IMG/VR virus record: IMGVR_UViG_3300020044_005907
Coordinates: 1-29,877 of that record
Origin: a virus
Taxonomy: Duplodnaviria; Caudoviricetes
Reading direction: 5' to 3' (one strand)
Length of the DNA: 29,877 nt
The notes under the pieces are model-generated. The model was not told the DNA's origin. It saw only the letters and a list, made by a program, of their open reading frames with translations, and did no database searches. Positions 6,784 through 26,094 of this stretch are shown piece by piece. The translations under genes were made by a program, and so were the position numbers. Numbering within the stretch: the first letter of the stretch is position 1; every line of letters begins with the position of its first letter.

Positions 6784-6862
6784 TAGTTAGTATATTTATT
6801 ATTGCGCTGATAAGCTCTTCCACTGCCTTCCAAACTTCTGCTGAGTAGTCGTATCGCTTCAT
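6776..6862 (-). CDS. 28-aa peptide (not in the ORF track)
   Basis: MKRYDYSAEVWKAVEELISAIINILTNE*. ATGA overlap with the DnaB-C stop; fills the gap. Confidence 0.4.
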   Translation of the reverse strand: MKRYDYSAEVWKAVEELISAIINILTNE

Positions 6863-7449
6863 GGGGTATGGAAGCTTGCTGTGCGTCCGTTGAACCTGAG
6901 CGTCGTCATCACGCCGCATGGCCCGTTGCGTTGGTAGGGAATTAGAATCTTGCGCAACTCCGAACCTTCCTCGTCGTCGTGCTTGATCGCCATGATTACG
7001 GTCGCATCCTGCTGAATGGCTCGCGACTCACGCGCCTTGCCCTGCTCGTTTAGTTGAGTGATAGAAATCACCAGACAACCAAGCTCAAGCCCGATCAACC
7101 GCAACGCACGGCTAACCTCGGCAACCTCACGCTCGCGGGTAGACTCACGGCCAAGGTCGCACCTGACCAACTGGATGTAGTCAACTAGCAACACGCCTAG
7201 CCCATCCGGCGACTTCGCCATTGCTCGCGCAGTCGCAACGATGGACGCAATGTCATGCAGGTCATCGCGAATAACAAGCTTCGCAGAGTGCAGTCGATTG
7301 AGCGCCTTCTGCATTCCGGCCATATCGCGCTCCGTCTTCACGCCTTCAGCCAACGCCCTGAGTGGAACCTGACCAATGCAGGCAACTAACCTGTCAATGA
7401 TCTGACTCGCTGGCATCTCAAGGCTGACGATAAGTATTCCTTTTTCCAT
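6859..7449 (-). CDS. dnaB: DnaB-like replicative helicase, C-terminal part (split gene)
   Basis: Motif H1a ILIVSLEM, Walker B LLVDYIQL, REREVAEVSRALR, H3 ITQLN, H4 RESRAIQQDA and QRNGP. No Walker A. Confidence 0.9.
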   Translation of the reverse strand: MEKGILIVSLEMPASQIIDRLVACIGQVPLRALAEGVKTERDMAGMQKALNRLHSAKLVIRDDLHDIASIVATARAMAKSPDGLGVLLVDYIQLVRCDLGRESTREREVAEVSRALRLIGLELGCLVISITQLNEQGKARESRAIQQDATVIMAIKHDDEEGSELRKILIPYQRNGPCGVMTTLRFNGRTASFHTP

Positions 7450-7681
7450 TGTCCTTTCGTATTTCTTTTGAGTTGTAACTTTTCTGCTTCCGATCCTCCT
7501 GCACGGTTAGCACCACCTCAATGTCCTCTGTGCTTTGATTCTGTGGAAGTACAGCAAGCTCATCAATGAGTCGCTGACATTCCACTCGTGTGCCTCGATG
7601 CAGCACCTCCTGTACGATTTTGGGTCGTGGGAGGTGCCGCATGTGATCGGCAGCAATAGTTCGTCTAATCGCGACGTACAC
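7418..7681 (-). CDS. Hypothetical protein overlapping the DnaB-C start
   Basis: 87 aa, overlaps both neighbours. Confidence 0.6.
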   Translation of the reverse strand: MYVAIRRTIAADHMRHLPRPKIVQEVLHRGTRVECQRLIDELAVLPQNQSTEDIEVVLTVQEDRKQKSYNSKEIRKDNGKRNTYRQP

Positions 7682-8447
7682 GGGACAACAACCTTACGTC
7701 TTCCGAAGGCTCAGGCCACTCATCCAGTTCCTGCAACAACTTGAATGACTGAAGCTGTGAGTCGATACGCTGGTTAGCGTATGTCCATGCAGCTTCATCC
7801 ATCTCCATCCATTGACAGAAGTGCGGTGCCTCCATGTCTACAACCAAGAAACGAAAGTCAGCCTCGATTCCTGTGATCCTTTCGTAGCCGTAGGCGTACC
7901 AAGCAGCCTGCAAGTCGTACCCAAACTGCCAAAACTTTGACGGAAAGCGGAAAAAGTCTGACGTAGTTTTCAGGTCAACAATACAAACCTTGTCGTCCTT
8001 ATAGTCATGCCAGATCAAATCCGGCCTGCCCTTGCATTGCACGCCGCCGCGCTCCCAGAACATCGATGCTTCAATGGTCAGGTTGCTCAAATGCTTCAGC
8101 ATTTTCATAGCCTTGCTTCCAGCAGCCTCAAGCCGCGCCCCTTCATCGACAGTAACGACTTCCTTGTTGATGTTCATCTCACAGAAAAGCTGCCACTCCT
8201 CTTTTCCTGCTTTAGTGCGGCGATCAACTGCTGGTCCAACCGCCCAGTCCGTATTGCCTTCAAGCACCCAACTGTGCAGCAGCGTGCCTAACACCATCTC
8301 CCTGCTAGGCTTCCACTCCTGCTTCAGCTTGTACTTGTAGTACGCTGGCGATTGTAAGAAGTTGTCGAACTGATGCTTAGACAAGCCAGCTTCAGATCTG
8401 TACTGTGACATCGACATATCGTCGATAATTTGCGTTATCATGCTCAT
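7665..8447 (-). CDS. PD-(D/E)XK exonuclease (RecE/exonuclease VIII-like, DUF3799 type)
   Basis: GLSKH, GTLLHSWVLE, VDRRTKAGKEEW, IEASMFW...CKGRPDL...IVDLKTT, YDLQAAWY. Confidence 0.88.
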   Translation of the reverse strand: MSMITQIIDDMSMSQYRSEAGLSKHQFDNFLQSPAYYKYKLKQEWKPSREMVLGTLLHSWVLEGNTDWAVGPAVDRRTKAGKEEWQLFCEMNINKEVVTVDEGARLEAAGSKAMKMLKHLSNLTIEASMFWERGGVQCKGRPDLIWHDYKDDKVCIVDLKTTSDFFRFPSKFWQFGYDLQAAWYAYGYERITGIEADFRFLVVDMEAPHFCQWMEMDEAAWTYANQRIDSQLQSFKLLQELDEWPEPSEDVRLLSRVRRD

Positions 8448-8923
8448 ATTGTTTCGTTTAGTAGTTTTTCTATCTTAATGTGCAACTCAGTTACACTTCC
8501 ATCATTTATCACATTGTAGTCCACCTGAATACTGTTTTGTTCAGTTTCTGATACGTGAGTGCCTTGTTCTATGTTTGGGCGCACGATCCGAATCAGCATG
8601 CCGCCTGCTCGCTTGATCCAGTCTGCTTCGTTCTGAAAGCGGACATCAGTAATCACTGTTGGCGCGCCAAACCTAACTGGGTTGCACCACTTCATGCAGT
8701 CAACCCACACGTTCGGGTTGTACTTGCGGCCTGCCATTCCGATGTCCTGCAATAACGCTCGGCCTGCCCCAGTCTTTTCGCCAGTCCATCCCATCTGCAT
8801 GGCAATCTGTTTCACAGGCTGGGCAAACGACGCTTCTTGGTATCCAGCGTTAGTAAACACTTCAGCAGCCGTGTTCTTTCCGCTGCCTGCAATTCCAACT
8901 AATCCAATCAATTTTGGTTTCAT
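8444..8923 (-). CDS. Deoxynucleoside monophosphate kinase
   Basis: LIGLVGIAGSGKNT, SFAQPVK, RALLQDIG, VITDVRFQNE, HVSE. Likely start ATG 8923. Confidence 0.88.
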   Translation of the reverse strand: MKPKLIGLVGIAGSGKNTAAEVFTNAGYQEASFAQPVKQIAMQMGWTGEKTGAGRALLQDIGMAGRKYNPNVWVDCMKWCNPVRFGAPTVITDVRFQNEADWIKRAGGMLIRIVRPNIEQGTHVSETEQNSIQVDYNVINDGSVTELHIKIEKLLNETI

Positions 8924-9237
8924 ATTTTTGGGTTCATTTCTAATCCTAGACATCCATTGACAACCCCGGACTTGTCCCGGAGTAATTTGGCCGGGGAGAC
9001 CAAATCCCGGCGGCCCGGATAAGCTTGTCTAACCATTGTTGGAACAATGTAGACAGTGTCTTTTTTGGGTTGCGGAACTCCTGAAGCTCCGTTGACGATG
9101 GTTTCAAAACACGGAATGCCGTTGATGCTTCCGGCATGAATTGTCTGGGCGTTGACACGCGCAACTTCACCATCAGGCTCCATTGGATCGTGTCCCGCTA
9201 CATGAATAACGTAAGGGGTAAGGTTGATAACTTTCAT
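8920..9237 (-). CDS. Conserved viral hypothetical protein (INLTP-type)
   Basis: MKVINLTP...VPQPKKDTVYIVP...RRDLVSP..LLRD.SG...GC. ATGA overlap with the DnaB-N stop. Confidence 0.7.
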   Translation of the reverse strand: MKVINLTPYVIHVAGHDPMEPDGEVARVNAQTIHAGSINGIPCFETIVNGASGVPQPKKDTVYIVPTMVRQAYPGRRDLVSPAKLLRDKSGVVNGCLGLEMNPKI

Positions 9238-9911
9238 AAAAGATTTGCGACTATATTGAGTGCTAACATTGTTTTGCCTGACTTGGTTTCGCCACCAATC
9301 ACCAAGAAATCTCCGTAGCGAATTGGAGTCAGGTTATCGAGCTTCTCGTATCCCGTCTTAATCCGCTGCGTTGAGTCGTCACCAGTCTGGTAGCGAGTGA
9401 TAGCAGCAAGCAGCATTGTTTTAGTATCCTCAGCAGCGGGTGGAGATAGTTGTGTCTGAATCGAATCAACTTGAACAGCAACATCATTGACAATCTCGGT
9501 TGTCTTGACGTCCGCCTTGTTGATTTTACTCAACGCCTCATGTGCAACAATCTGTAGTGCGCGACGTTTAGCGCAACTGCGAACTGCTTCCAGCAATTCA
9601 GGCAGCGCCCCTTCAATCGGCATCAGCGTGTACAGGTCGGTTAATTGAGCAAACGTCGTCTCCGGCAACCGCTCGCGCAGTTTCTCAAAAATAACGCGAG
9701 CATCACAGCTTGCGCCTCTGCTGTTCTGGTCGATGACAATTTCCACAACCGCACGAGATGCGGGTTCAAAGATGTCGCTTGTCTGAAACCGCTTCTCAGC
9801 AATGTAGTTGAGAACAGTCTTCGGATGGTTCAAGGCAACGCTGGCAATGCCGCGCTCTGACTCGGTTGCGGTAGGAACAATCATGTCAGAATCCAATTTG
9901 GTCTTCCTCAT
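9234..9911 (-). CDS. dnaB: DnaB-like replicative helicase, N-terminal domain, linker and Walker A (split gene)
   Basis: VPTATESERGIAS-type N-domain start, then IKTGYEKLDNLT and GDFLVIGGETKSGKTMLALNIVANLL followed by TGA. Confidence 0.9.
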   Translation of the reverse strand: MRKTKLDSDMIVPTATESERGIASVALNHPKTVLNYIAEKRFQTSDIFEPASRAVVEIVIDQNSRGASCDARVIFEKLRERLPETTFAQLTDLYTLMPIEGALPELLEAVRSCAKRRALQIVAHEALSKINKADVKTTEIVNDVAVQVDSIQTQLSPPAAEDTKTMLLAAITRYQTGDDSTQRIKTGYEKLDNLTPIRYGDFLVIGGETKSGKTMLALNIVANLL

Positions 9912-10512
9912 ATTCTTCGATCAAACTGCCAGTTTTTTTGAGTCTTTTTTCTTTGCGATATTCAGCGGCATTCTCAAGCCACTTGTGGATGAATGCGTCA
10001 ATGCCCTTCACCTTGGTCTTACGCTTGCTGTGCCCAGCTTCGCACCAAAGAGACGCCTTGAACATTTCCTCCTCAACAATTTTGTGTCCGTACTTTTTGA
10101 TGTTTTTGTCGATGACTTTTGCGGAGCAAGTGCCGTAGCCATCGTCTCGCTTGAACTGCATCGTGTAGATGCTCTCGGTTTTCTGCACGGGATTAGGATC
10201 GGGAAACAGCGTGGGTTCCTCCCTCATTTCTCCCCTATCCTTCCTTTCCCCCACACCCCCTATCCTACCTAACCCCTCATTTACTCCCTCCTCCGCCTTC
10301 TTCAAATCTATGCGAGCTTCTTGCTTTGGAACCAAATCAATGACCGTCCATCCATCACTAACTTCCACGGGAAGGGGCCTACGCGCCCCGTCTTGGGCAG
10401 TTAGGTAGTTGGGCAATACGATGACAGCTCTACCACCAGCATACCCCACTGGAATCGTCAGGTGAATGGATTCGCCAATCGCAGGAGTAAAGGTGAAGTA
10501 AATTTTACTCAT
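9886..10512 (-). CDS. Putative replication initiator/replisome organiser
   Basis: Lies directly upstream of the helicase, has a C-terminal helical domain (KGIDAFIHKWLENA) and an internal purine-skewed repeat tract. Confidence 0.45.
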   Translation of the reverse strand: MSKIYFTFTPAIGESIHLTIPVGYAGGRAVIVLPNYLTAQDGARRPLPVEVSDGWTVIDLVPKQEARIDLKKAEEGVNEGLGRIGGVGERKDRGEMREEPTLFPDPNPVQKTESIYTMQFKRDDGYGTCSAKVIDKNIKKYGHKIVEEEMFKASLWCEAGHSKRKTKVKGIDAFIHKWLENAAEYRKEKRLKKTGSLIEEYEEDQIGF

Positions 10513-10804
10513 TGTCCTGTTCCTCCAACAGCTTGGTTGTAATCGTCATTTGCACCAGCTTTTCACGAGCCTCCTCAAGCGTGTGAGAGTTGATGTATTC
10601 GCGCAAAAATCGCAGCTCATCAATCCCGTCTTGCTCGCCACCTTGCAGGATGCTGACAAACACGCCGAATGTCAGTGTCATCACCTCCATCATCCCCGGC
10701 TGACCTTTTGGGAAAACAAGGCCAATTCTGCCATCCTCATGGCGAGTGATCATCAGTGTCGTTGTTACTTCTTCTGGTATTTCAATTAGATGTTTTTGTT
10801 TCAT
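10505..10804 (-). CDS. Hypothetical protein
   Basis: Likely start ATG 10804, after the leader ACAACCAAAACAATATAC. Confidence 0.7.
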   Translation of the reverse strand: MKQKHLIEIPEEVTTTLMITRHEDGRIGLVFPKGQPGMMEVMTLTFGVFVSILQGGEQDGIDELRFLREYINSHTLEEAREKLVQMTITTKLLEEQDNE

Positions 10805-10863
10805 GTATATTGTTTTGGTTGTGCGCGTTGCCACAGTCGCGCCCCTGCTAAACTATGTAGCTA

Positions 10864-11220
10864 TTACAGCTCAGACATCCACTCGTGTCTCAAAACGTCC
10901 ATGCCATCACGCAGGAGTGCAAAAAACAGCGAGGCATCCATCGTTACCTTCCAGTTGGAGCGACTTTTCTTGTGGGCGACTATGTACGGTTTGACCCCAC
11001 GGTCACGATCAGCCTGCTCACAAGCCTGCTCCAAGTTGAGTTTCTCCACAAATTTGACTTCCATGTGGAGGTTCTTCAACTCAGAACAGATAACATCTGG
11101 ACTGTCTGAGCCGCCAGAGAACTGTTGGCCTCGGCGGGCTGTGAACCCCTCCTCACGGAGAAGATCACGCCACAACCGTTCACCTCTCGCTCCTTTAGCT
11201 CGCGAGTTGATTTTTGACAT
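10864..11220 (-). CDS. Holliday junction resolvase (Hjc-like PD-(D/E)XK)
   Basis: NSRAKGARGER, ARRGQQFSGGSDSPDV, LHMEVK. Confidence 0.85.
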   Translation of the reverse strand: MSKINSRAKGARGERLWRDLLREEGFTARRGQQFSGGSDSPDVICSELKNLHMEVKFVEKLNLEQACEQADRDRGVKPYIVAHKKSRSNWKVTMDASLFFALLRDGMDVLRHEWMSEL

Positions 11221-11392
11221 CGGTAGACAGCTTGTCGAATGCTGTTTTCACCTTCTCGGGGTCGTAACGATAGACACGCTTGCCAAACTGAATGGCGGGA
11301 ATTGTGCCGTCTCTTGTAAACCTGAGAATTGCTTGATATGGGAAGCCCAGCTTTTCGCCGAGCTGTTTTGCAGTGAGTAGTGTAAAGTTCAT
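11195..11392 (-). CDS. Excisionase/MerR-like HTH DNA-binding protein
   Basis: LLTAKQLGEKLG...ILRFTRDGTIPAIQFGKRVYRYD. Confidence 0.8.
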   Translation of the reverse strand: MNFTLLTAKQLGEKLGFPYQAILRFTRDGTIPAIQFGKRVYRYDPEKVKTAFDKLSTDVKNQLAS

Positions 11393-11394
11393 AA

Positions 11395-12066
11395 TTACCA
11401 GCCTAGATCGTCTTCGTCTTTTTCGGTTTCAGTTTCGGGTTCAGTTTCTTCTTGTTTTGGTTTTGCTGCTGAGGCTGGGAATGCTTTCGCAAATCCGGCC
11501 CTGTCAGCAGAAATGAATAGCGACGTTGCAATCGCCTGAAGCTGCTCGGGAGTCACCTTGACCTGCTCTCCAACCCAAGCCGCTGCCTTGATAGCTTCCG
11601 CCATCAATTGCGCCGCTTGAAACAAAGCCTTGCGAGCTTCAGCGGGAGTAATCCCGCCAGTGCTAATAGGTGACTTGCTAGTCACTGCACGCTGTGGTGC
11701 AGGTGCGCCTCCATTCTCGGCAGCAAGTTCAGCGTCCGTGAGGATCGCCGCCTTGTCGTTAATCTTAAGTTCGGTAACCTTTGTTTTAGGGTTTTCGGCT
11801 ACAGTCAATCCCTGCAATCCCTTTGGTGTTGAACGTGACTTGATGGTGATCATCTGGCCTTCCAAGTCATCCATTGCAGACGGAATCCAAAACGCTGCAC
11901 GAATCTCGCCAGTACTATCTTGCACAATCGCGTTTTGCACACGCCACGGACCAAAATTCCCAACCCCCTTGTTTTCTGGGAATACCTTTTTAACCTGCAC
12001 GCGCATCTCGCCAATGGTCGTGCCACTGGAAAGCTCTGAAACCTGATTAATTTTTGCTACTTTCAT
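11395..12066 (-). CDS. OB-fold single-stranded DNA-binding protein
   Basis: VQNAIVQDSTGEIRAAFW is an RPA-like OB motif. The acidic tail ends EDEDDLGW. First gene of the replication operon. Confidence 0.75.
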   Translation of the reverse strand: MKVAKINQVSELSSGTTIGEMRVQVKKVFPENKGVGNFGPWRVQNAIVQDSTGEIRAAFWIPSAMDDLEGQMITIKSRSTPKGLQGLTVAENPKTKVTELKINDKAAILTDAELAAENGGAPAPQRAVTSKSPISTGGITPAEARKALFQAAQLMAEAIKAAAWVGEQVKVTPEQLQAIATSLFISADRAGFAKAFPASAAKPKQEETEPETETEKDEDDLGW

Positions 12067-12166: not shown

Positions 12167-12313
12167 TTACCTCTTGCGACGAGGGGCCGCAGGCTGCCTT
12201 AACGCTTGTTTCTGTGCAACGTAAGCGTGTGTGTTGCTTGGCTTTGACTGTGGTTTTGCAACACCAAGTGCTTGTTTAAATGCGTTTGTAGCGGATACGT
12301 CTGATCGTTTCAT
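12167..12313 (-). CDS. 48-aa basic peptide (not in the ORF track)
   Basis: MKRSDVSATNAFKQALGVAKPQSKPSNTHAYVAQKQALRQPAAPRRKR*. ATGA overlap with the 1106-aa gene. Confidence 0.55.
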   Translation of the reverse strand: MKRSDVSATNAFKQALGVAKPQSKPSNTHAYVAQKQALRQPAAPRRKR

Positions 12314-15300
12314 TTTCGGTTCATTATGTCGCTCATGTGCTGGTTAACAGCCTTTTGTTCAGCTTCAGTAGCAGAAGAATAAATCCCAACCCTGTCCCCG
12401 CTTGGATTGAACAGCATGTATTTGTTTTGCTGTGTTTTAACAACTTTAAATCCGTACTTAAAATCCGTTGTAACGGTGCCGTTTTTCAAGTCTTCCTCGT
12501 ACACGTTTTGCGGCGCAAACGGAAGCGGTTTTACTACCTGTTCCATGCCACGCGCAGACGTCCACGCTTTTAGGAATGCCTCTACGCGAGGCTTGCTTTT
12601 TTGATCCAAGGTGCGAAGCATCTCAACTGCCACATCTGGCTTAGACACAAAGTCCACCATAAGATCTTCTGTTCGTTTTTTAACGTCACCTTTCCACAGT
12701 TTGCGGACAAGGTTTACAACACCTTCTGTTCCGGCAGCTAGCGATGAACGCTTTGAAGGGTCAACGCCTCTGGCAAACTTAAACAACACAGACATCGCGT
12801 TACCGCTGAGTCCTTCGCCAAGCACAATGTCCTGCAATGTGTTGTATGCAGTAGACGATTCACCTTGCGTCAAAGATGTCTTTCTCAATAACGCTCGCGT
12901 TTGTTCTCTGGCAGTCTTAAGCGCAAGCACTTCTTTTGGATCAAAAACCATGTCCATGACTTGCCGCATGTCGCTATCGGGCAACAGATCTCGATTTAGC
13001 TTGTCGATGCTTGATTGAAGATCTTTAACTTCAATTTCAGCGTTTGCGTCTAGCTGTTTTCCGGCAACAACGCTGGCAAACTTACGAGTGTCTTTTGCAA
13101 TGTAAGTGCGCAGTGCGTTGCGTAGTCCTTCCAAGGCTTGAGAATCGCCCTGAGCGGCCTGCATTAATGCAGCAAATTCTTTTACTGGACTGCGACTTTT
13201 GTTTGTAAAAATGTTGTCAATTGCCGTTACAGGTGTAGGCCCAAGAAATCTACTAACTGCTGTGTCTTGAAGGTTTTTTGCAAACTCATCAAAAGTTGAC
13301 TGTGCCGTTTTGGCTGCGCCAGAAGCTATTTTTTCAGCATTTGCCTGAGCTTCTTTAATGCGCAGCTCTGTATAGTCAAAAGCGTGTTTTTGATTACTTT
13401 CGGAAGTGTCTTTTTTAGTTAAGGCATCATCTACGTTTTTTTGCGCAGTAGAAATGTTGTCTATGATGCCTTTAATTTTAGGCCGAACTTCAGGAAATAC
13501 CTCAAAGATAACAGACAAATCTTGATTTCTGTACCACTTGGCAAGGTCTGCGGCTTTTGCTTCAACTCCAAATTTATCTACAAGCTTGTTTAGTTGCCAT
13601 GTAGCAATTTCATCAAAAACAGCGGGAGAAATACTGCCTGTTGCTGGATCTGTAGATGCAGTTCTAAATTGTTTTTGAGTTTCTAGTCCGCCATTTAAAT
13701 AGTGATCCAAAAACTCAGAAGGAGCCTTTGTTGTTGGATTGTTTTTTACATAGGTGTCTATGTGAGACTTGTAAATAGCGTTGGCTTCTTTGACTAACTT
13801 GGATTTTTCTCCAAGCTTCGCCAAATCTTTTTCCATTCCAGTTCGCAGTTCATTAAGGGCAGCAAGCGGCATAGAATCAGCCGCTGCTTTTCTGATAGCG
13901 TTGTTTACAGCAACAATTTCACCACGAAGCGTATGAATGTTAAAAAAACGACGGCTTCCTTTTTGGCCGGGGGCATAGTTGTCTATGATTCGTCTAATTG
14001 CAGGATCAAGGTTTGCACCTTCTACGCGCTCAGATCTTGACCTGTATTTTTTTGCGGCAGTTACAGCGGCGCGATATGAGTTAGAAAAATCCGTTAAAAT
14101 AGAGTCTCCAGCCTTGCCGATGTTTCTGTACGCAGCACTTGCAAGATCAGAGCTAATTGAATCATTAATCTCAAATCTTGTTCGTGAAGCGTTAGATGCC
14201 GTGGCTTTTGTTTGAATGCCGGAATATTGAGCAAACTCAGATGTTGCGTTATTTAGCAATGCTCCAACTTCACGACTTGCAACATCAGCATCACTTACTC
14301 GATTAATGGCCGCAGAACGAATTTGAGCAGCTTCCTTAAAAGCGGCGTCTAAAATTGCAGCTCCTTGATCATTTCCTGCTGCAATTGCGGCATCCCGAAG
14401 TGAGGCCGCTTCTGCAAGTGTTCTTTGGTTTTGGCCGTCAAACTTTAATTGAGTGTACTCCGGCGTTGCTCCCGTTTGCTTGGTTGCTTCTCCAAGGTTG
14501 GAGGCAATTTTAGCTTGCGTTTTACGCAAAGAATCCATTAAGCCCGTGTTTTTGCGCTCAAGCGAACTCTGAAGCGCAATTAATCCAGACACATCAGACA
14601 TGTTGCCTGAGCCGAGATTTACGCCACCTTCAGTCAGCGGAATAGCGCCTTCAATTGCTGCGGCAGCCTGCTCTGCTTTTGCCGTCGTTGGCGCGCCTTC
14701 TTCTGCCCCAAGCGCGCTTTTTAAAAAGGATTTACTGCGGTCTATTGCCGCCATGTCCTTGCGGTACTCGCGGTTGAACAAATACCTGCCAACCCTATTT
14801 GGCTTAGTAACCATTGACGTCGCAACGTCAAATGCAAGCCGTTCTACAAACTCTTTTGGCTTTAACTCTACGCCTTGATACACTTGTTTCGCCGCAAACC
14901 CCAAATCTATTCCGGCAGACAATAAGGCTCCCTTAATTAGGTTTGCTCCAGCTTCAATCCCAAGTTTGTTTGTTGCAAATGACGGCAAAAACTGCCCAAT
15001 CATTTGCCCAAGGCGAGTGTCTGGAAGCTCATAGTCAAACGCAATTTGCGATCGTTCTGCGTCTGTGGGAGGGAAAAACTCATCTTGCAGTTCTGCTCCT
15101 TTTATGGAACCGCCTATGGTGCCTGCTATTCCCATTCCCGGAAGAGGAATTGCGCTGCCTAAAGCGCCCCCGGCAATGCCGCCAATGGTAGGCCCAATTG
15201 CAGACATTGCTCCACGGCCAACAGAAGCAAGAAATCCATCGTCTTTAGACGACTTGTATGCGTTCCAGTAGGGCGTGATTGCGCCCATGTACTCTTCAGG

Positions 15301-15630
15301 CGTAAAGCTAGGCGGAATGTACCCTTGAGAAACTGCCTTGTCTAAAACTTGACGCGGCGTTTCTCCAAGCGCAAATGGATTTACGTTTTGCCCAGACTGC
15401 CCTGCAATGGCTTGTCTAATATCTGAAACAAAACCGGGAGAAAGATCACGCTTATCTAAAAACGACTCTTCATCTGGAGTTGTTTTTGGCATTGGAACAT
15501 CGCCAAACTCCAATGGCTTAAATGGCACCTCTGAAACCTCAGGTCCACCAGCAGCCAAAGCTTCTGGTGTAGCAACTTCAGACAACTTGTTTTTTTCAGA
15601 CGGCAGATTTTCGTAATCTTCAAGTGGCAT
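12310..15630 (-). CDS. Large internal virion/DNA ejection protein
   Basis: 1106 aa, Ala-rich and helical, with a Gly-rich hydrophobic hairpin near the N-terminus. Last large gene of the structural operon. Confidence 0.65.
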   Translation of the reverse strand: MPLEDYENLPSEKNKLSEVATPEALAAGGPEVSEVPFKPLEFGDVPMPKTTPDEESFLDKRDLSPGFVSDIRQAIAGQSGQNVNPFALGETPRQVLDKAVSQGYIPPSFTPEEYMGAITPYWNAYKSSKDDGFLASVGRGAMSAIGPTIGGIAGGALGSAIPLPGMGIAGTIGGSIKGAELQDEFFPPTDAERSQIAFDYELPDTRLGQMIGQFLPSFATNKLGIEAGANLIKGALLSAGIDLGFAAKQVYQGVELKPKEFVERLAFDVATSMVTKPNRVGRYLFNREYRKDMAAIDRSKSFLKSALGAEEGAPTTAKAEQAAAAIEGAIPLTEGGVNLGSGNMSDVSGLIALQSSLERKNTGLMDSLRKTQAKIASNLGEATKQTGATPEYTQLKFDGQNQRTLAEAASLRDAAIAAGNDQGAAILDAAFKEAAQIRSAAINRVSDADVASREVGALLNNATSEFAQYSGIQTKATASNASRTRFEINDSISSDLASAAYRNIGKAGDSILTDFSNSYRAAVTAAKKYRSRSERVEGANLDPAIRRIIDNYAPGQKGSRRFFNIHTLRGEIVAVNNAIRKAAADSMPLAALNELRTGMEKDLAKLGEKSKLVKEANAIYKSHIDTYVKNNPTTKAPSEFLDHYLNGGLETQKQFRTASTDPATGSISPAVFDEIATWQLNKLVDKFGVEAKAADLAKWYRNQDLSVIFEVFPEVRPKIKGIIDNISTAQKNVDDALTKKDTSESNQKHAFDYTELRIKEAQANAEKIASGAAKTAQSTFDEFAKNLQDTAVSRFLGPTPVTAIDNIFTNKSRSPVKEFAALMQAAQGDSQALEGLRNALRTYIAKDTRKFASVVAGKQLDANAEIEVKDLQSSIDKLNRDLLPDSDMRQVMDMVFDPKEVLALKTAREQTRALLRKTSLTQGESSTAYNTLQDIVLGEGLSGNAMSVLFKFARGVDPSKRSSLAAGTEGVVNLVRKLWKGDVKKRTEDLMVDFVSKPDVAVEMLRTLDQKSKPRVEAFLKAWTSARGMEQVVKPLPFAPQNVYEEDLKNGTVTTDFKYGFKVVKTQQNKYMLFNPSGDRVGIYSSATEAEQKAVNQHMSDIMNRK

Positions 15631-15635
15631 AATTG

Positions 15636-16781
15636 CTATTCGTTAAGCTTAAGATCTCTGCCTGTATTTCTTTTAAATATTTGTTTTACGGCTTCTTTTG
15701 ATTTGCCTTGGCTGATTGCGTTTTTTGCAAGTTCTGTTTCCCTTTCAACGTCTTGTTCTTTTTTTAACAAAAACATTTGAGCCATTGTTTGTTGGCCGCG
15801 AATAACTTTTGCATCAGCAGTGTCGTCTATTCTTATGCGTTTTTGTAGCGTATTATCTGCGCTTAAAAAATCAGACTGAGCGTATCCAAGAGCTTGAGTG
15901 GCATATTTTGGGCTTGATTGAGCAGCAAGCGTGTTAAATGCGTCGTTTGTCTGATTCAACAAAATGTCGTGTAATTGCTGAAGTTTTGACTGAAAGGCTC
16001 TTATATTTCCTTTTGTTACATCAGCGTTTGCCCTTAGTAGATTGCCTACAGTAAAATATGTTTCAGGAAGTTGCCCTCCAACTAACCTGCTAACTTCTTG
16101 GCTAGACAAAGCATCAGAGCTTCCAGCAAGGGCAGTATTATATAGCTTTAGCTGAGACAAAAGCGTTGGAGATATTCTTTGCGCCCAATCTTTTTCGCTT
16201 TCTCCGGGAAGCATGGTGTTTTCATCTGCTTGGCTTGCGTAAGTAGAAAGGCCAGAAATCCAAATGTTTCGCTTTTGAACTAATGGGGAAATTTCTTTTC
16301 TAAGCTCGTCAACGCGAGGGTTTGCCTTGTCAAAGTCGTCTATTTTAGGAACCGTTTGATCGTTGAGCGTTTCGTAAAACTCTCTATTTGCTTTTACCGC
16401 AGCCTCTGGGAGACGCAGCGCATCTTGTGCAAGCCGCTCAGTGTACCGAATTTTGTTTTCTATCCTTTTTTTGTCTGATTCTTCCTTTTTCCTAGTCCAT
16501 GCAGTTTCAGGAAACAGCACTTCATCTCCCTGTGGTTGCATTTGCACGCCTAATCCAGCTTGTTGCTGTGCGGCAACTTGCGGGGGGACAGCAGCAGGAG
16601 GCTGTCCATACGAAGAAAGCGTTTGTGTCTGAGGAGCCTGTTGTGAAGCAGCCTGCGGTGGCGGAGCTTGCTGTGCAGCCATAGCAGCGCGAAGCAATTC
16701 AGGATCAATTTGCGGAGCTTGCCCAAGCGAGACTGGAGCAGCTTGCTTGTAATAATCTAGTACAGCTTGATCTTCTTCCAT
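15636..16781 (-). CDS. Putative internal virion/ejection protein
   Basis: 381 aa, Q/P/A-rich N-terminus, located among the ejection genes. Confidence 0.55.
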   Translation of the reverse strand: MEEDQAVLDYYKQAAPVSLGQAPQIDPELLRAAMAAQQAPPPQAASQQAPQTQTLSSYGQPPAAVPPQVAAQQQAGLGVQMQPQGDEVLFPETAWTRKKEESDKKRIENKIRYTERLAQDALRLPEAAVKANREFYETLNDQTVPKIDDFDKANPRVDELRKEISPLVQKRNIWISGLSTYASQADENTMLPGESEKDWAQRISPTLLSQLKLYNTALAGSSDALSSQEVSRLVGGQLPETYFTVGNLLRANADVTKGNIRAFQSKLQQLHDILLNQTNDAFNTLAAQSSPKYATQALGYAQSDFLSADNTLQKRIRIDDTADAKVIRGQQTMAQMFLLKKEQDVERETELAKNAISQGKSKEAVKQIFKRNTGRDLKLNE

Positions 16782-16783
16782 AA

Positions 16784-17731
16784 TTATGGCTTAACTAAAC
16801 TTGGATCTACGCCGCCAGTTGCTGCTTGCGCAGCATAAGCCGCTTTTGCCCTTTCTTGTTCCCAAATGCTGTTATAAGCACGTTGCGAAATTGCGCCCTG
16901 CAACTGCATTTGTTGATTAAAATCCATAGCATTAGTAGCCTGCTTAGACAACAATGGAAGTGCTGTTTGGTAGTATGCTGCCTTATCTACGTTGCCAAGC
17001 GTGTTGGCGTAATTCATAACAGCATCAGCCTGTTGTTGATTTACAGCGGAACCAAATACGGCAGATCTTGCAGCAGGATCTTTTAGCAATCCTTCCATTG
17101 TGCGGCTTGTCTTATTGGCTGTTTGAGCCTCCTGCATGTACGAACCAAGTGCCCCTGCAAAAGCTTGCCCTAATTCTGTTCCACCGCCACCTCCGCCACC
17201 TCCGTATCCACCTCCATACCCACCGCCACCACCATCATCTGCCATTGTGTTCATTAGCATGGTTGGCACCATTTTACCTAGAATTGCTCCAGTAGTACTC
17301 AAGCCCCCTGCTAGTCCGCCAACTTTTGCTCCAACAGAAGCTCCGCCGCCAAGTGCGCTTAATGCCCCAGATCCAAACGTAGACAACCCAGACATAAATC
17401 CGCCAGTTGCCGCGCCAGCCCCTGCTGCTCCGGCTGCACCTGCGGCCCCTGCGGCCCCTGCTGATCCGGCTGCACCGGCTGCACCGGCTGCACCAGCGCC
17501 AACGGCTGCTGGAGCCAACATTGCAGCAGCCCCGCCAGTTAATGCGGCTGCACCAATAATAGCGGCCGTTTTTAGAAGGTTGCCTTTTTTCTTTTTTTTA
17601 GCCCTTCTTCTTGCTTCAGCTGCTGCCTCTGCGCGCCCTTGTGCAAACCCAAGCCTTCCGTAAGCGTCAGTAATTTGATCTGCCGCGCCTTGGGGAAATA
17701 AATTTGTTGATCCAGATGTTATTCCTTGCAT
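16784..17731 (-). CDS. Putative DNA pilot/ejection protein
   Basis: A basic run (RRRAKKKKKG) precedes a hydrophobic G/A stretch, (GAA)n repeats and poly-Gly. Confidence 0.6.
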   Translation of the reverse strand: MQGITSGSTNLFPQGAADQITDAYGRLGFAQGRAEAAAEARRRAKKKKKGNLLKTAAIIGAAALTGGAAAMLAPAAVGAGAAGAAGAAGSAGAAGAAGAAGAAGAGAATGGFMSGLSTFGSGALSALGGGASVGAKVGGLAGGLSTTGAILGKMVPTMLMNTMADDGGGGGYGGGYGGGGGGGGTELGQAFAGALGSYMQEAQTANKTSRTMEGLLKDPAARSAVFGSAVNQQQADAVMNYANTLGNVDKAAYYQTALPLLSKQATNAMDFNQQMQLQGAISQRAYNSIWEQERAKAAYAAQAATGGVDPSLVKP

Positions 17732-17752
17732 AGTTAATGTTGGTTAAATTTA

Positions 17753-20020
17753 TTATCTGCCTTGAGCGTAACCAGCTGCAAAGTTCAGCCTAGACGCTGT
17801 GTTGCTAAATGCTGTTTGATAGGGCAGCTGCGTCATAGACGTAATTGCTGGATTCATGATGTTACCAACATTTATGCCAGCTTGCGAGTATTGATTTTGA
17901 GCCTGATTTACACTGGTTTGCAATGTGCCCTGACTTGGTGGAACATTATAATACGCACTTAAAACAGGAGACAATGCTTGTTGTTGCGTTCCAAGTACAG
18001 AACTGGCAATTCCAGCGGCATTTGATTGCAGTGTGTTTGCAGACTGTATTCGAGCCGATTCAGCTTCGCCTCTAGCCAACGACTGGCTAAATAGCTGCGA
18101 CTGAATTGCGGCTTGTTGCTGCTCTCTGGTGGAGGCCTGTCCAAATTGCTGAGCCTGTGTGCTTAGTCCAAGTTGTTCTTTGCCTGAAGCCTGCTGGTAT
18201 TTTTGAGACTGAATTGCAGCCTGCTGCTGTTCTCTTGTAGCAGCTTGTCCAAATTGCTGGCCTTGAGTTGTTAGCCCTAATTGCTCCCTGCCTAGCGCCT
18301 GCTGGTATTGTTGAGATTGCGCTCCTAGCCCAAGTTGCTCAAGGCCAAACCTCTGTTGGTATTCTTGCGCTTGCGCTGTTCTTGCCAAATCCTCCCTAGA
18401 CATCCCTTGCCCAAAAGCTTGAGCCTGCGCTCCAAGTCCATATTGCTCCGCTCCAACTTGACGAGCATAAGCTTGCCCTAACGCTGGCTGATACAAGCCG
18501 GAAATTGTTCCCATGGCCTGCTGTGCGGCAGCTTGACGCTCGCGATATCTTCGTTCAGCAAGCTCTTCACGCCCCAGCACTTCCGATGTGATCGCCTGTG
18601 GTCCAAGTGCTATACCCCTGTCAGCATAAGCCTGCCGAGCAGCCTGAGTTGCCATTCTTTCTTGCTCTGGAGTTAACGATCTTCCCGCAGCTAAATCTAA
18701 GTTGATTTGTTGTCCAAGTCGTTGCGCCCCCTCAGTAACTCCAGGCATTGTGCTCATATATTGATCCACAATTCGTTGGTCAATATTTCCAAGCTTGGAC
18801 TGTAATTCCGGCCCTGCAATATCTGAAGTGAACTCTCCCGGCCTATATGCTTGCATCCCTCCAAGCGTTAAGTCAACAGATGGCCCTGCTACTTGATTTA
18901 AGTACTGGCCCGTAACTGGCCCTTGTACCTGACCAAGTTCTTGCCCATACATTGGACCCTCTACTGCATTTAACAGCTTTCCAGCTTCTGGCCTTGCTAC
19001 AGATCCAAGCTCTTGACCGTAAGTTGGACCTTCCACCTGCTGCTCAAACGCAGTTAACTCAGGACGTGCATTGGCCTGTTGCGCCATTTGCTGCCCAAGT
19101 TTCGAAAGAGACGATAATGTCTCCTTTGCTCCCGGAAGCTGCTTTAAATATTCAGCATTATACTGAGGAAGAAGACTTTTAAATTGAGCGGCTTTCCCCT
19201 TTTGCGTTTGTAAATTAAACTCTGCGTCCCCATAAGCAGCCAGCTCTGCGGCAGACATGCCCTCAAACTGCGAGTCAAATTCGGCTACCTTTGCCTTTTC
19301 CGCTGCTGTTAATAGTTTTTTTGCTCTAAGAGCCGCAATTTCAGGAGTATCTAAAGTAGACTGTATGTTTTTTAATGCCTGCTCTCGCTGGGATTTTCCT
19401 GTAATTTCCGCTAATTGAGGAGCATAAGTCTTTTCTAGCTCATAGCTTTTTTCAATAACTGCTTGAGCAGCCCTTGCATTTTGATCTGTAAGTGTTTCTG
19501 TGCTTGGAGGATTAACTGTAGCAACTTTATCGGAAACTGCTTGGAAATTACGAAATCCTCCGGGTAGATTTTCAAATCCTTTTGCGCCTAAATTTGAAAT
19601 ACCAGCCGCAGCAGCAGCCGCATTAATTGAATCGTTATATGTTATTTTATTGGCAGCTTCAAATTTAGCCGCATTTGCAACCCCAAGTGGACTATATGTG
19701 GCTAAATCTTTTTTTATTGCAGCAAGCTCATCTTTTGCTGTAAAAAAAGAATCTCCAAACTCTTTAATTCCTGCTGCATCTCTTCTTAATTCAGAAGGAA
19801 GCGATAGAGTAAATAACTCTGGATCAAGATCTGTTTCCCCAGTTAACTGAGCCGGAGTAGCCGCCGCGCCTTTAGTCCATTGTTTTTTGGATGCATCCCA
19901 ATTATAAATATATTGAATTGGATCTCCGTTTTTATCAACAGGAACTACAAAAGTTTTAGGATCTACAAATGTATCAATTGTTTGTTGACCTTGAACAAGT
20001 CCTGGAGTGGTTATTGGCAT
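17753..20020 (-). CDS. Gln/Ala-rich putative internal virion protein with internal repeats
   Basis: 755 aa. EQLGL...QQFGQA.TREQQQAAIQSQ and VEGP.YGQELG are each repeated. Confidence 0.6.
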   Translation of the reverse strand: MPITTPGLVQGQQTIDTFVDPKTFVVPVDKNGDPIQYIYNWDASKKQWTKGAAATPAQLTGETDLDPELFTLSLPSELRRDAAGIKEFGDSFFTAKDELAAIKKDLATYSPLGVANAAKFEAANKITYNDSINAAAAAAGISNLGAKGFENLPGGFRNFQAVSDKVATVNPPSTETLTDQNARAAQAVIEKSYELEKTYAPQLAEITGKSQREQALKNIQSTLDTPEIAALRAKKLLTAAEKAKVAEFDSQFEGMSAAELAAYGDAEFNLQTQKGKAAQFKSLLPQYNAEYLKQLPGAKETLSSLSKLGQQMAQQANARPELTAFEQQVEGPTYGQELGSVARPEAGKLLNAVEGPMYGQELGQVQGPVTGQYLNQVAGPSVDLTLGGMQAYRPGEFTSDIAGPELQSKLGNIDQRIVDQYMSTMPGVTEGAQRLGQQINLDLAAGRSLTPEQERMATQAARQAYADRGIALGPQAITSEVLGREELAERRYRERQAAAQQAMGTISGLYQPALGQAYARQVGAEQYGLGAQAQAFGQGMSREDLARTAQAQEYQQRFGLEQLGLGAQSQQYQQALGREQLGLTTQGQQFGQAATREQQQAAIQSQKYQQASGKEQLGLSTQAQQFGQASTREQQQAAIQSQLFSQSLARGEAESARIQSANTLQSNAAGIASSVLGTQQQALSPVLSAYYNVPPSQGTLQTSVNQAQNQYSQAGINVGNIMNPAITSMTQLPYQTAFSNTASRLNFAAGYAQGR

Positions 20021-20078
20021 ACGTTTAAGTTGGTTAATAGCCCATTAATTTATGGGCAATATTATGTATCAATAAAAG

Positions 20079-20927
20079 TTAAGAAGTGAACGTAATAGTT
20101 CCAGATGTGGTGAATGTGTGAACTGTAAACGAGCCAACGGTGGTTGTGGTATTTCCTGTGCCAGTGATTGTAGCGCGACTAGGAGAAGTATACCAAATCT
20201 TTACGATTCCAGATCCGCCTGCTCCTGAAAGGTCATCAGGTCCATTATATCCACCGCCACCACCTCCGCCTGTATTTACTGCGCCAGATCCTGCAACTGT
20301 GTTTGACGACCTTGCCCCAGCTCCGCCACCTCCAGTTCCTCCAGCTCCTCCGGTAGTGTAATCAATAATTGATCCTCCTCCGCCTCCAGATACTACTTGA
20401 TTAACTCCAGCAACAGTTACAGTTCTGCCTGCGCCTCCAGCGCCTCCTGCTGTTGGTGTTGCATTTGCTCCCACTGCTCCACCTCCGCCGCCTCCGGCAT
20501 TGCCATTACTTGGGACCGCAGATCCATTCCCCCCGTTGTTTCCCTGTGATGGAGTTAATGAAGGAACATTTCCAAGACCGCCAGTTATAGCCTCTCTAGT
20601 TCCTCCGCCTCCACTTCCTCCAGATAAAGCAGGTCCATAAATCTGCGTTCCGCCTCCGCCTCCGCCGTTTGTTATAATTCCAAAAAAAGAAGAATCTGTT
20701 CCACTAGATGGCGCCGCGTCAAAAAAACTTTTACCAATTCCCCCTGCACCAATGATTACATTTAGCTGAAAAAGGGTTGTAACAGTAAAGTTGCTTTCCA
20801 CAAACACGCCTCCTCCGCCGCCTCCGCCTCCATCATAGCCTCCAGCGCCTCCGCCAGCAACAACCATTGCATTTATTGCGGCAGTCTGGATCTGATTTGA
20901 AGTAACAAATAACGACTTAGCAAACAT
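20079..20927 (-). CDS. Glycine-rich domain tail/adsorption protein
   Basis: VVAGGGAGG...GGGGGGG, ANTGGGGGG-like AVNTGGGGGG, GGSGIVKIWY, VHTFTTSGTITF. Confidence 0.8.
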   Translation of the reverse strand: MFAKSLFVTSNQIQTAAINAMVVAGGGAGGYDGGGGGGGGVFVESNFTVTTLFQLNVIIGAGGIGKSFFDAAPSSGTDSSFFGIITNGGGGGGTQIYGPALSGGSGGGGTREAITGGLGNVPSLTPSQGNNGGNGSAVPSNGNAGGGGGGAVGANATPTAGGAGGAGRTVTVAGVNQVVSGGGGGSIIDYTTGGAGGTGGGGAGARSSNTVAGSGAVNTGGGGGGGYNGPDDLSGAGGSGIVKIWYTSPSRATITGTGNTTTTVGSFTVHTFTTSGTITFTS

Positions 20928-22027
20928 TAGTATATGTAATTTCTAATAAAATTTCCATACCACTTAACGCCATCAGAAACAAAAGAAAGTATATCCATTC
21001 TGCCTGCGGTCGCAGTCACAATTGGCGCTGCTGCGTTTGGCCAAACAACCCCTGTAAACGTGGCTGTTCCGTTTCCTGTTACTGCCGCCTGCTTAAGGTA
21101 CAACACAAACGACTTTCCTGCTCCAACAGCAGGCATTGTAAAAGTACATGCCGTACTAGCTGTAAGTGTGGCAGTCAAAACCGTTCCAGCGGTAATTGCT
21201 AGTGTTGCAGATGCCCCAACTGTGCCAACTGCTACTGTCCCTTCTGTGTATCCATTAATTGTGGAAGTTGCAATTGTCGGAGAAGAAGCAAGCACTACTG
21301 CGCCTGTGCCTGTTATTGCGCTTAGTTGAGATGAAGTGATTCCAGCCGCAACTTGGCCAGCAGAAATGCCAGTAATCTGTGCGGATGTGATTCCTACTCC
21401 AACTTGGGCGGCAGATAGGCCTGTGATTTGTGCGGACGTAAGCCCTGCTCCAACTCGAGCGGCAGTAAGCGTTCCTGTGATGATGTTGCTGGCATTTGTC
21501 GTATCAGTTATAGCTGATGCAGCAAGTCCAGTAACTTGAGCGGCAGTAAGCGAGTTGATCTGCGCAGAAGTAATCCCGGGAAGTATCTTTACAGGATCTA
21601 TGGTCGAAGCTGTAGACAACGGAATGTATCCAAGCGCAGTTGTTACATTTAACGACGACAACACAGAAAGATTTGCGCTGGTTATCTCAGATCGAATAGT
21701 TGCAGACGACTTGTTTTCTACGTTGTTAAGACCAAGGTTTGTTTTTGCTGTCGTTGCGTTTGCAAGATCAGACAAGTTGTCCGCCTTTGCCAGCAAAGTT
21801 GACGGATTAATTCCACCAAGTGCCTGAAGCACAGTTGCCTTCTTAAGCAGCCCAGCAGACAACACAGAAATCTGAAGCGAGCTTGGATCTACGTTTGCAG
21901 CAAGGTCAACTTGATCTGAAATAGACCCGGGCAATAGCGTAGCACCATCTACATGCGTGTTTAAGTTCGCAATAGTTACCGTAGAATTTGTAGTTGTATA
22001 CGTTGTGCCTTTGTTGATCTGGGCCAT
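20927..22027 (-). CDS. Tail fibre-like protein
   Basis: ADNLSDLANATTAKTNLGL fibre motif, TSAQI repeats and a C-terminal beta domain ending DILSFVSDGVKWYG. Confidence 0.75.
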   Translation of the reverse strand: MAQINKGTTYTTTNSTVTIANLNTHVDGATLLPGSISDQVDLAANVDPSSLQISVLSAGLLKKATVLQALGGINPSTLLAKADNLSDLANATTAKTNLGLNNVENKSSATIRSEITSANLSVLSSLNVTTALGYIPLSTASTIDPVKILPGITSAQINSLTAAQVTGLAASAITDTTNASNIITGTLTAARVGAGLTSAQITGLSAAQVGVGITSAQITGISAGQVAAGITSSQLSAITGTGAVVLASSPTIATSTINGYTEGTVAVGTVGASATLAITAGTVLTATLTASTACTFTMPAVGAGKSFVLYLKQAAVTGNGTATFTGVVWPNAAAPIVTATAGRMDILSFVSDGVKWYGNFIRNYIY

Positions 22028-22029
22028 AA

Positions 22030-23937
22030 TTACTCCTGACTAACCATTGGGCGATTTGCGCCAATGCAATAAATTGTTACACCTTTTAACGCTGGTCTAC
22101 CAGAAGAAAACTGTATTGTGAAGTCAGCTCCAGATCCGCGCATTGCAATTCTAGGCCGTAAGGTTCCATCTGAGTTGCCAGAAAACTGATACCCAAGAAT
22201 CTCTTGAGTAGAATCTGGGTCGTGCATGGTGGCAGAAATGGTTACTGCATCTTGTTGCACGTTATTAAACTGAAACTCCCCTCGACTAAACCTTTTCTCA
22301 GACAGTGAGTTTATTGTAAACTCACGAGTGCGAACAAAAGAATTAATCTGATTTAACAGCCCTCCAGAATTAAGATCCGCAGGCAATGCAAATGGCAAAA
22401 CAACCCCAGCCGCACCATTGATGTAAAAATCACCACCTTCAATTTCTTCAGTCAAAAAGACTCCGCCAAACTGAAGTGCTCCAGTAAAGTTGGTTAGAAT
22501 GTACATTCTTTTTTGGTACTCATACGAAGCAACAACAAGATTGTCTGCATTCAAGCCGTCTGGATAAACATCTATACTTTCCCAGTTTTTGTTTAAGTTG
22601 TTGTAAATTACAATCCTATTGTTTCTTGCAGTTGGGTTTGCCGGGTCTTCGATAGGAAGCGCCACAAAGAACCTGTTGTCGTAGTAAGCGGCTACAGAGT
22701 TCCCAACAATTGAATAGTTAAGACCAGTAAAAAAGTCTGATATTGACTCAGATAAAGGCATTGTGTTTCCAATTACCTTAAGGTCTAACTGTGGTGTAAG
22801 AAGGTAAATGCCTTTTGTAGACAAGAACATGACGTACTGACCGGCGTTTACAATTGTCTTTCTAGCCAAACACCCAAGCTCTGTGGTTACTACTGTAATT
22901 TGGCTTCTGTCTGGTTGCGTAACGTCAAACTGTGGATCAAGGAACGCCATGTATATGGAGTTGCGCATGAATACCAAAAATTGGTTTTCAATCCATGGCA
23001 AGCATCCAACAATAATGTCATTGCCGCCTTGGTTAATTAAAAACGCATTAAACTGAACGTCAGTCTGAAATGAAAGAATGTCACTTACAACCAATTGATG
23101 GTTTGTGTACTTTGCAACTATTCTGTTTTGGTAGTAAAACCCAAACTCAGCAGGCGGAAGAGACTTTGTAATGTAGGTCAACCCAGTGCCGCTACTTGGA
23201 TTAACATACGCTTGATTTGCTGCAATAAACTGCGTTGTTATAGAGTCCCAGATTAGTGGCGGCTTGCCCTTTACAGCCGTGCAAGGTCCATGATTGGTGT
23301 GCGCCTGAAAGGTGCTGCCAGTTGTGTTTGTCCATGCAAATGTAAATGTAGTTGGAGTTACAACTGTGATGATGTAGTTTCCATCTGTTGTTGACTCTAC
23401 ATTAAACAAGTTTTGTCTTACAGTTACTTCGTTACCAGTTGAGTACCCATGAGACACTGAGGTTGTAACTGTAATTGTGCCAGTTGCTCCATTGGAAATT
23501 GAGGAATTTGAAATGGTGGCAGCGTAAGCTGTGTCGCTATATTGCCCTCGAAAAATAACAATCTTGTCTAAAGCCTGAATTGGCTCAACAATGATGTCTG
23601 CTGTGACAAACCTTCCTGTTGGATAATTGTATGGCCCAAGAGTTGCCTCTGGATAGCCGATCTGTGCAGGCCGATATAGGTACATGCTGCCTGAAAAAAC
23701 CAGCACTATGTTATCGCGGCCAAGTGAGTCTATCCACACCCCAGACCCTACCATTGTAAATGGATTTAGATCACTGTTTGTAAGCCGCTGACAGCCCTTT
23801 CTAGGCTGTGCAACGCCTCTCTGTAACCTTACGTTCTGAGCAGCCTGAAGAATGCCTGGAGGCAAGTTTGCAGGGTCAAGCCTACTAGCAAAGCCAGTGT
23901 AACTGTTATCTGATTCAGCTTGTTGCTGTGAAGGCAT
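22030..23937 (-). CDS. Tail nozzle/head-stabilisation protein (P22 gp10-like beta-propeller)
   Basis: 635 aa, beta-rich. AQNVR...PRKG near the N-terminus, ELGCLARKTI, MFLSTKGIYLL, PLSESISDFF. Confidence 0.7.
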   Translation of the reverse strand: MPSQQQAESDNSYTGFASRLDPANLPPGILQAAQNVRLQRGVAQPRKGCQRLTNSDLNPFTMVGSGVWIDSLGRDNIVLVFSGSMYLYRPAQIGYPEATLGPYNYPTGRFVTADIIVEPIQALDKIVIFRGQYSDTAYAATISNSSISNGATGTITVTTSVSHGYSTGNEVTVRQNLFNVESTTDGNYIITVVTPTTFTFAWTNTTGSTFQAHTNHGPCTAVKGKPPLIWDSITTQFIAANQAYVNPSSGTGLTYITKSLPPAEFGFYYQNRIVAKYTNHQLVVSDILSFQTDVQFNAFLINQGGNDIIVGCLPWIENQFLVFMRNSIYMAFLDPQFDVTQPDRSQITVVTTELGCLARKTIVNAGQYVMFLSTKGIYLLTPQLDLKVIGNTMPLSESISDFFTGLNYSIVGNSVAAYYDNRFFVALPIEDPANPTARNNRIVIYNNLNKNWESIDVYPDGLNADNLVVASYEYQKRMYILTNFTGALQFGGVFLTEEIEGGDFYINGAAGVVLPFALPADLNSGGLLNQINSFVRTREFTINSLSEKRFSRGEFQFNNVQQDAVTISATMHDPDSTQEILGYQFSGNSDGTLRPRIAMRGSGADFTIQFSSGRPALKGVTIYCIGANRPMVSQE

Positions 23938-24194
23938 TAAGAAATAAGCTTACTAAGCTTGTCTACAATCCGCTGAAGGTCATCACGAAGTTCAATCATG
24001 CGCTCATTGTCTTCTCCGCCTTCTTCTTCTGAGTATTCTCCCTCTTCCATGTCTTCTTCTTCGCCATACCCACACTCAGAGCAGCAGCCGTCGGATTCAA
24101 GTGGAGATTCGCACTCAGGACAAGACTTTCCTTTCTTTCCGCCCATAGGGCTTCCAAGAATCATCAATAAGGTTTTAGCGTCGGTTTTAGGCAT
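23937..24194 (-). CDS. Small acidic Zn-ribbon protein
   Basis: CPEC...CSECG followed by a Glu-rich tract. Likely start ATG 24194. Confidence 0.65.
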   Translation of the reverse strand: MPKTDAKTLLMILGSPMGGKKGKSCPECESPLESDGCCSECGYGEEEDMEEGEYSEEEGGEDNERMIELRDDLQRIVDKLSKLIS

Positions 24195-26063: not shown

Positions 26064-26094
26064 AAGGATAGAGATGTAGATTTACGAGGCATGG

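Follow-up and report, generated by a model that had tools for sequence, protein, structure and literature searches.

The DNA analyzed here (the window) is a virus record of 29,877 nucleotides (nt) from IMG/VR (IMGVR_UViG_3300020044_005907; Duplodnaviria, Caudoviricetes), rated 74% complete. It contains tail, holin, and endolysin-like genes and a replication module on the minus strand, in which the DnaB helicase is encoded by two separate genes with four other genes between them. The first half, hereafter the N chain (9234..9911, minus strand; 225 amino acids, aa), comprises the N-terminal collar domain, the linker, the Walker A strand, the P-loop, and the helix after the P-loop. Its P-loop reads GETKSGKT, with Lys210 at position K-3 (codon region 9280-9282), and its C-terminal end is ...GKTMLALNIVANLL, followed by the stop codon. 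The second half, hereafter the C chain (6859..7449, minus strand; 196 aa; Pfam DnaB_C), has its own ATG and starts with MEKGILIVSLEM. It carries the catalytic Glu11 (SLEM), the Walker B Asp90, Gln132 (QLN), the RES motif, and the arginine finger Arg174; two residues before Arg174, a Tyr replaces the Lys (~6934-6936).

All six open reading frames (ORFs) were found on the minus strand where a first-pass annotation of the sequence had placed them, and its claim of a DnaB split with other genes between the halves is borne out by these ORFs and by the matches to Pfam and TIGR00665. The Pfam DnaB_C profile is divided between the two proteins, with positions 2-43 in the N chain and 49-254 in the C chain, and so is TIGR00665 (positions 3-219 and 225-431, respectively); the Pfam DnaB N-domain matches the N chain weakly (E 0.006). 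The domain order of DnaB, from the N-terminal helical domain through the linker to the RecA-like domain, is preserved across the two ORFs. Neither half alone reaches the full-length NCBIfam cut-offs, and the single polypeptide of DnaB is replaced by two ORFs lying 1,784 nt apart.

The annotation had also placed the break inside the ATP site of the RecA fold, with almost no residues lost or duplicated, and both statements agree with our results. Indeed, the spacing between GKT and SLEM is 19 residues in the window (11 in the N chain plus 8 in the C chain) vs mostly 20-21 in intact homologs. On the structural model of P0001, an intact relative described below (predicted local distance difference test, pLDDT, 91.7), the break maps to a 6-residue loop between helix 220-233, which is the helix after Walker A, and strand 240-245, which ends in the catalytic Glu.

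The four genes between the halves overlap each other and the two halves, by 4, 34, 4, 17, and 32 nt at the five successive junctions. The first gene (8920..9237, minus strand) encodes a 105-aa protein that has no Pfam family and belongs to a phage family that is widespread but unnamed; in the ESM Atlas, it falls in unnamed phage clusters with hundreds of members (score 0.96). The second (8444..8953, minus strand) encodes a deoxynucleoside monophosphate kinase (PF21448), and the third (7665..8447, minus strand) a RecE/exonuclease VIII-like PD-(D/E)XK nuclease (DUF3799; PF12684, phrog_412). The last is a small ORF (7418..7681, minus strand), 87 aa as called and of no known family, whose record in the Atlas starts at Met residue 14 and which gave no match in the ESM Atlas search. 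We counted these genes in 83 other distinct loci by tblastn, as ORF clustering had lumped together small proteins that are unrelated. Three genes are constant (83/83), namely the 105-aa gene, RecE, and the small ORF, and the ATG of the 105-aa gene, which directly follows that of the N chain, overlaps the end of the N chain in 81 of the 83 loci. Conversely, the kinase is in the gap in 37/83 loci and elsewhere nearby in 17. Thus, the insert of about 1.8 kb with overlapping genes is as annotated, with the correction that it is not a fixed block of four genes. In 27 of the 83 loci, extra genes separate the small ORF from the C half, and the cargo of the gap includes a C5 cytosine methyltransferase (17 loci; L027:5187-6029) and a ThyX thymidylate synthase (one locus; L171:2827-3633). 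Among the 29 representative insert ORFs scanned, an HTH-HNH endonuclease was found in 1/83 inserts only (L237:6373-6792).

Then, we evaluated how widely the split is conserved. In the pooled searches, duplicates included, the split lies at the same point in 181/181 entries in which both halves are complete, and none is fused. These entries correspond to 84 distinct sequences, among which the gap measures 1,320-3,820 nt and varies in content; relatives with the same split point and different inserts, proposed in the annotation as a check, were therefore found. In IMG/VR, where the best 80 of 125 loci were considered, 74 loci include the N half, and all 74 are split at the same point; no continuous dnaB was seen in the best 80 of 115 metagenome loci. 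In a profile search against 1.84 billion representatives, stand-alone proteins of 221-239 aa outrank the first intact ones. Judged on sequence only, 31 of 32 stand-alone N halves end 9-40 residues after Walker A, with identity to the window as low as 31%. No proteins longer than the N-half alignment were found among those of 451-2000 aa (the 400-450 aa range lay outside the search). Walker A, SLEM, DYxQ, QLN, and RES are retained in 84/84 distinct loci. An intact helicase elsewhere in the genome, which the annotation had named as evidence against a working split enzyme, did not emerge: the two halves are the only DnaB sequences in the five related genome records, four of them rated 100% complete.

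We assessed selection on the 511 of 3,486 pairs with synonymous distance (dS) between 0.05 and 1 in both halves. The median ratio of nonsynonymous to synonymous distance (dN/dS) was 0.054 for the N half and 0.039 for the C half, and dN/dS was below 0.14 in all 33 disjoint pairs; both halves are thus under strong purifying selection and not relaxed. Between the window and its relative L001, the dN/dS values were 0.017/0.44 (N) and 0.009/0.49 (C). We see next to no chance of an assembly error or a decaying pseudogene: both are ruled out by the recurrence of the split in 84 distinct sequences and by values so far below 1. Furthermore, a contig from the sequencing run X2 (labelled as a freshwater metagenome, and containing close pieces of the dnaB region) matches 9204-9354, across the stop codon of the N chain, with zero differences.

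Within the N chain, constraint is strongest on the piece of the ATPase fold that it carries (residues 183-225, median 0.019); the collar domain and the linker have values of 0.057 and 0.047. This pattern bears on the idea that the two halves do separate jobs without assembling. Their distance of 1.3-3.8 kb, with translational coupling not maintained, could be read in that sense; however, the strongest constraint acts on an otherwise isolated Walker A strand and helix, and the C chain retains catalytic residues that require a P-loop. The Walker A strand is an inner strand of the RecA sheet (strand order 32451678). It follows that the C chain alone is expected to be incomplete, and that assembly would need strand complementation, beyond the docking of two folded domains. 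When the C chain is modeled alone, confidence holds to about residue 130 but is poor over 133-156 and 169-181, a weak indication given an alignment of 15 rows vs 75 for P0001. On this evidence, separate functions appear highly improbable.

In one population of 29 loci, the protein distances of the N and C halves correlate with rho 0.80, vs 0.24-0.30 between the halves and RecE or the small ORF and 0.22-0.41 between the halves and the upstream genes. At the level of synonymous distances, the N-C pair shows no excess over the genes between the halves. These values suggest matched alleles of the two chains. The 105-aa protein, always encoded next after the N half, co-varies with the N and C halves alike (rho about 0.59) and could possibly be an assembly factor.

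We then considered whether the halves could be rejoined into one chain, at the RNA level (by splicing or a ribosomal jump) or at the DNA level (by excision of the insert), as the annotation had offered as its second option. The near-zero number of residues lost or doubled at the break would be expected in this case, and an intact form does exist within the clade. On the other side, the insert varies in length (1.3-3.8 kb) and content, the window has no Rfam match at gathering score, its insert has no non-coding space, and no direct repeat pairing the two junctions was present among the 20 of 31 repeat families listed. The start of the C half is nearly invariant: the nearest in-frame ATG lies 8 codons before SLEM in 80/84 sequences and 9 in one. 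Of the remaining three, one has an inner Met plus the Met at 8, and two are devoid of an ATG within 13 codons, one of which has an ATG 20 codons upstream. The bases upstream of this ATG are unconserved, and the N chain, whose tail is translated from sequence shared with the overlapping 105-aa gene, continues for 11 to 37 residues beyond GKT. A conserved C start with a wandering N stop indicates two independent genes. No contig joining the halves was obtained from two DNA and two RNA runs (4 of the 24 runs listed), a weak argument as the comparison used contigs rather than raw RNA reads, coverage was incomplete, and rare forms are lost in contigs. One contig with a joint at 7062-7150, of low likeness, is unrelated to the split junction.

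As regards the known agents of such splits, no intein family was found in the Pfam scans of the window, and PF14890 finds nothing in the five related genomes. With an N chain that ends 11 residues past GKT and a C chain that begins 8 before SLEM, an intein part would not fit on either half. For a group I or group II intron, there is no ribozyme match in the window, no non-coding space, and no conservation of the junction bases. The family scans returned no homing endonuclease gene in the gap of the window, where the constant nuclease belongs to the exonuclease VIII family. Intein, intron, and homing endonuclease are therefore absent from these scans, in line with the annotation, which had seen no such element and no transposase. 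Overall, we regard rejoining at either level as very unlikely.

The intact form within the split clade consists of P0001 and P0024, two continuous helicases of 431 aa that are 97% alike (Logan contigs of 8,979 and 40,139 nt). The tree built on both parts places them beside the split loci L046 (100/98) and L186 (97/92), at a large distance from the intact outgroups P0002, P0003, P0078, and P0079, and the N and C trees agree. Their junction combines the shortest N end with four extra residues, followed by TKSG where split forms have MKxG. A further member of the same 90% cluster, P0022, is 196 aa long, has a Met at the usual start of the C chain, and is 94% identical. P0001 and P0024 likely arose by re-fusion of split halves. 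On the other hand, a single split clade that excludes them is compatible with the AU tests (p 0.384 for C, 0.134 for N, and 0.073 for both), and outgroup junctions also vary (20-25 residues). In IMG/VR, the P0001 query gave only partial matches among the best 80 of 102 loci, with no intact in-clade gene. Searches for the junction pattern gave 4 and 0 matches; all four belong to a more distant outgroup, with 31-46% identity to P0001 or to the halves, and were discarded. The distant intact loci L291, L293, and L294 keep the order RusA, kinase, dnaB, and the three constant insert genes have no match in the fetched stretches of these loci. The intact gene is therefore the ancestral state.

Considering all these data, we estimate at roughly 80% the probability that the separately translated chains co-fold non-covalently into a working two-chain DnaB helicase, without splicing. 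This was the first option of the annotation, and it is supported, at the level of sequence, by the fixed split, the purifying selection, the lack of a second DnaB, and the start codon proper to the C chain. Both chains would be made from the same operon and then co-fold. The N chain would supply the Walker A strand, the P-loop, and the following helix, with Lys213 and Thr214 binding the phosphates; the C chain would complete the ATP site with Glu11, Asp90, and Gln132, and Arg174 of the neighboring C chain would act as the finger. Six N and six C chains would form a 12-chain ring. As for the origin of this arrangement, one old rearrangement may have brought the three constant insert genes into a surface loop, after which further genes would have moved in and out of the gap.

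Several points weigh against a working two-chain enzyme. The reassembly of the chains into an active enzyme is inferred from selection and from the retention of motifs. The excess of N-C correlation over that with the 105-aa gene is unclear (bootstrap 2.5% bound of -0.02), the distances behind the co-variation are small, the pairs are not independent, and a downstream gene reaches 0.6. The junction check is based on contigs, so a rare joined RNA could escape it. No primase or loader partner was identified among the genes of the window, itself 74% complete. Lastly, the canonical lysine of the KxR motif is missing in 84/84 split forms, which have I, Y, F, or W instead and keep the Arg, so activity would depend on a replacement from the P-loop.

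This last point deserves a closer look. DnaB normally takes a Lys and an Arg (KxR) from the neighboring subunit, the Lys acting as a stimulator in trans, as described in PMC9599734 and PMC8421360, and P-loop position K-3 is reported in PMC9599529 as a small residue in most classes. A Lys at K-3 is present in 84/84 split forms. Among the full-length intact homologs (part of P0001-P0207, a set biased to matches of this helicase family), 155 of 158 could be scored: 85 have the finger Lys only, 70 the P-loop Lys only, and none has both or neither. The pattern of exclusion reaches beyond the split clade. On the tree, each trait changes about six times, and 5/5 independent pairs go in the same direction (sign test p 0.0625, which is the floor for five pairs). 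The P-loop Lys (Lys210 in the window) is thus predicted to stand in for the lost finger Lys, acting in cis. This swap is older than the split and takes away the main sequence objection to activity.

The missing lysine is also among the arguments for a different role, in which the chains associate and the complex acts as a loader, drives recombination together with RecE, or joins the host DnaB as a decoy or in a mixed ring. Together with it, the loop after QLN is short, RecE always lies between the halves, and the window contains no primase family match. Nevertheless, intact relatives share both the lysine loss and the short loop, which are then traits of the lineage rather than effects of the split; the collar domain and the linker are as constrained as the rest, and the intact outgroups L291, L293, and L294 have the same replication module. 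We consider a role away from the fork unlikely. The full combination, that is, a Walker A strand inserted into the sheet of the other chain, a 12-chain ring, a clade-wide split that arose without a splicing element, re-fusion in one lineage, and the lysine moved to the P-loop, seems to us a little short of an even bet.

In the replication module, the split dnaB region is preceded by upstream replication and recombination genes (9886..12066, minus strand) in an order common to relatives: a gene for an OB-fold, SSB-like protein (weak match), one for a small HTH protein, one for a RusA-like resolvase, and two for proteins of 109 and 208 aa without a family. The 208-aa protein (9886-10512) is encoded directly upstream of the N half of the helicase, and its C-terminal part is conserved in relatives and weakly in the intact outgroups L293 and L294; it is a candidate initiator or loader. 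At some loci (L024, L026, and L027), a second partial copy of it lies inside the gap. Promoter and terminator scans gave results at chance level (4 vs 4.3 and 5 vs 5.8). On the reverse strand of L293, an intergenic stretch at ~2046-2464 is repeated, its translations repeating a unit several times in three frames; it is possibly a tandem repeat or an array of promoters.

Region 12310-28272 of the window includes large virion-type ORFs (1106, 755, 725, and 635 aa) whose family matches are slight or absent. Two glycine-rich proteins of PF21722 (20079-20927 and 28612-29463), a tail protein with ALTTAQ repeats, and a weak pesticin/lysozyme-like endolysin (24187-24792) are also encoded. Related contigs reach about 40-44 kb. 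Among cultured phages, 598/598 matches to the C half are below 60% identity, with the top rows at 33%. The split locus L171 sits on a 13-kb contig in a metagenome-assembled genome (MAG) of Pedosphaera (Verrucomicrobiota), and one intact outgroup protein derives from a Verrucomicrobiota MAG. These placements are a weak hint about the host, as phage contigs can be misbinned.

If the two-chain helicase is functional, Walker A and the Walker B/catalytic Glu of one RecA domain can come from different polypeptides in a processive ring motor. The locus would then mark a natural permissive split site, with two chains that can be separately mutated or labeled. P0001, as a natural one-chain relative, is a control for the cost of fission, and the lysine swap is a natural test of the role of the trans lysine finger in helicases of superfamily 4 (SF4). 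More generally, annotation pipelines will label halves of this kind as a truncated or hypothetical gene.

Splicing-free split genes are already known in phages, and include nrdA of Aeh1, gp43A/43B of the Aeromonas phages 25 and 44RR, and the T4 topoisomerase genes 39/60 (PMC2988022, PMC2677866). The split NrdA of Aeh1 and gp43A/B are reported as active, with chains shown to reassemble (PMC2988022). As in these cases, the split DnaB is an essential replication or nucleotide enzyme made as two genes, with no intein or intron. The differences are in the gap, which in the former is occupied by a homing endonuclease or an untranslated spacer and here by three constant ordinary genes plus variable cargo; in the distribution, limited to single phages or small groups in the former and fixed over a clade here, with N halves down to 31% identity; and in the host protein, here a ring helicase. 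These enzymes, the absent KxR lysine, and the intact in-clade form had been overlooked in the first-pass annotation.

Closer in protein are the gp41/DnaB-type helicase genes described by Dassa et al. (2009, PMC2677866), which are fractured and carry split inteins. They too encode a phage SF4 helicase in two parts, are separated by another gene, and are under purifying selection. Their products are ligated into a single chain through the split inteins, whereas the present halves are without intein parts. In the open-licence literature, which leaves subscription papers largely outside, we found no DnaB/SF4 helicase cut inside the ATPase core without an intein. Compared with canonical DnaB/SF4 helicases (DnaB of E. 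coli, Vibrio, and Geobacillus, and SPP1 G40P), the split DnaB has the same domain order, fold, Walker A, Glu, Walker B, Gln, and Arg finger. The P0001 model matches Vibrio DnaB 8a3v_A with a template modeling (TM) score of 0.79 (E 1e-26), and the C chain matches 8a3v_B with Z 12.3 and a root-mean-square deviation of 2.7 over 146 residues. It differs from them in its two chains, in the lack of the KxR lysine, and in the lysine at K-3 of the P-loop. The split is therefore real, selected, and clade-wide; splicing-free split phage enzymes are already known, and the DnaB case is new among them.

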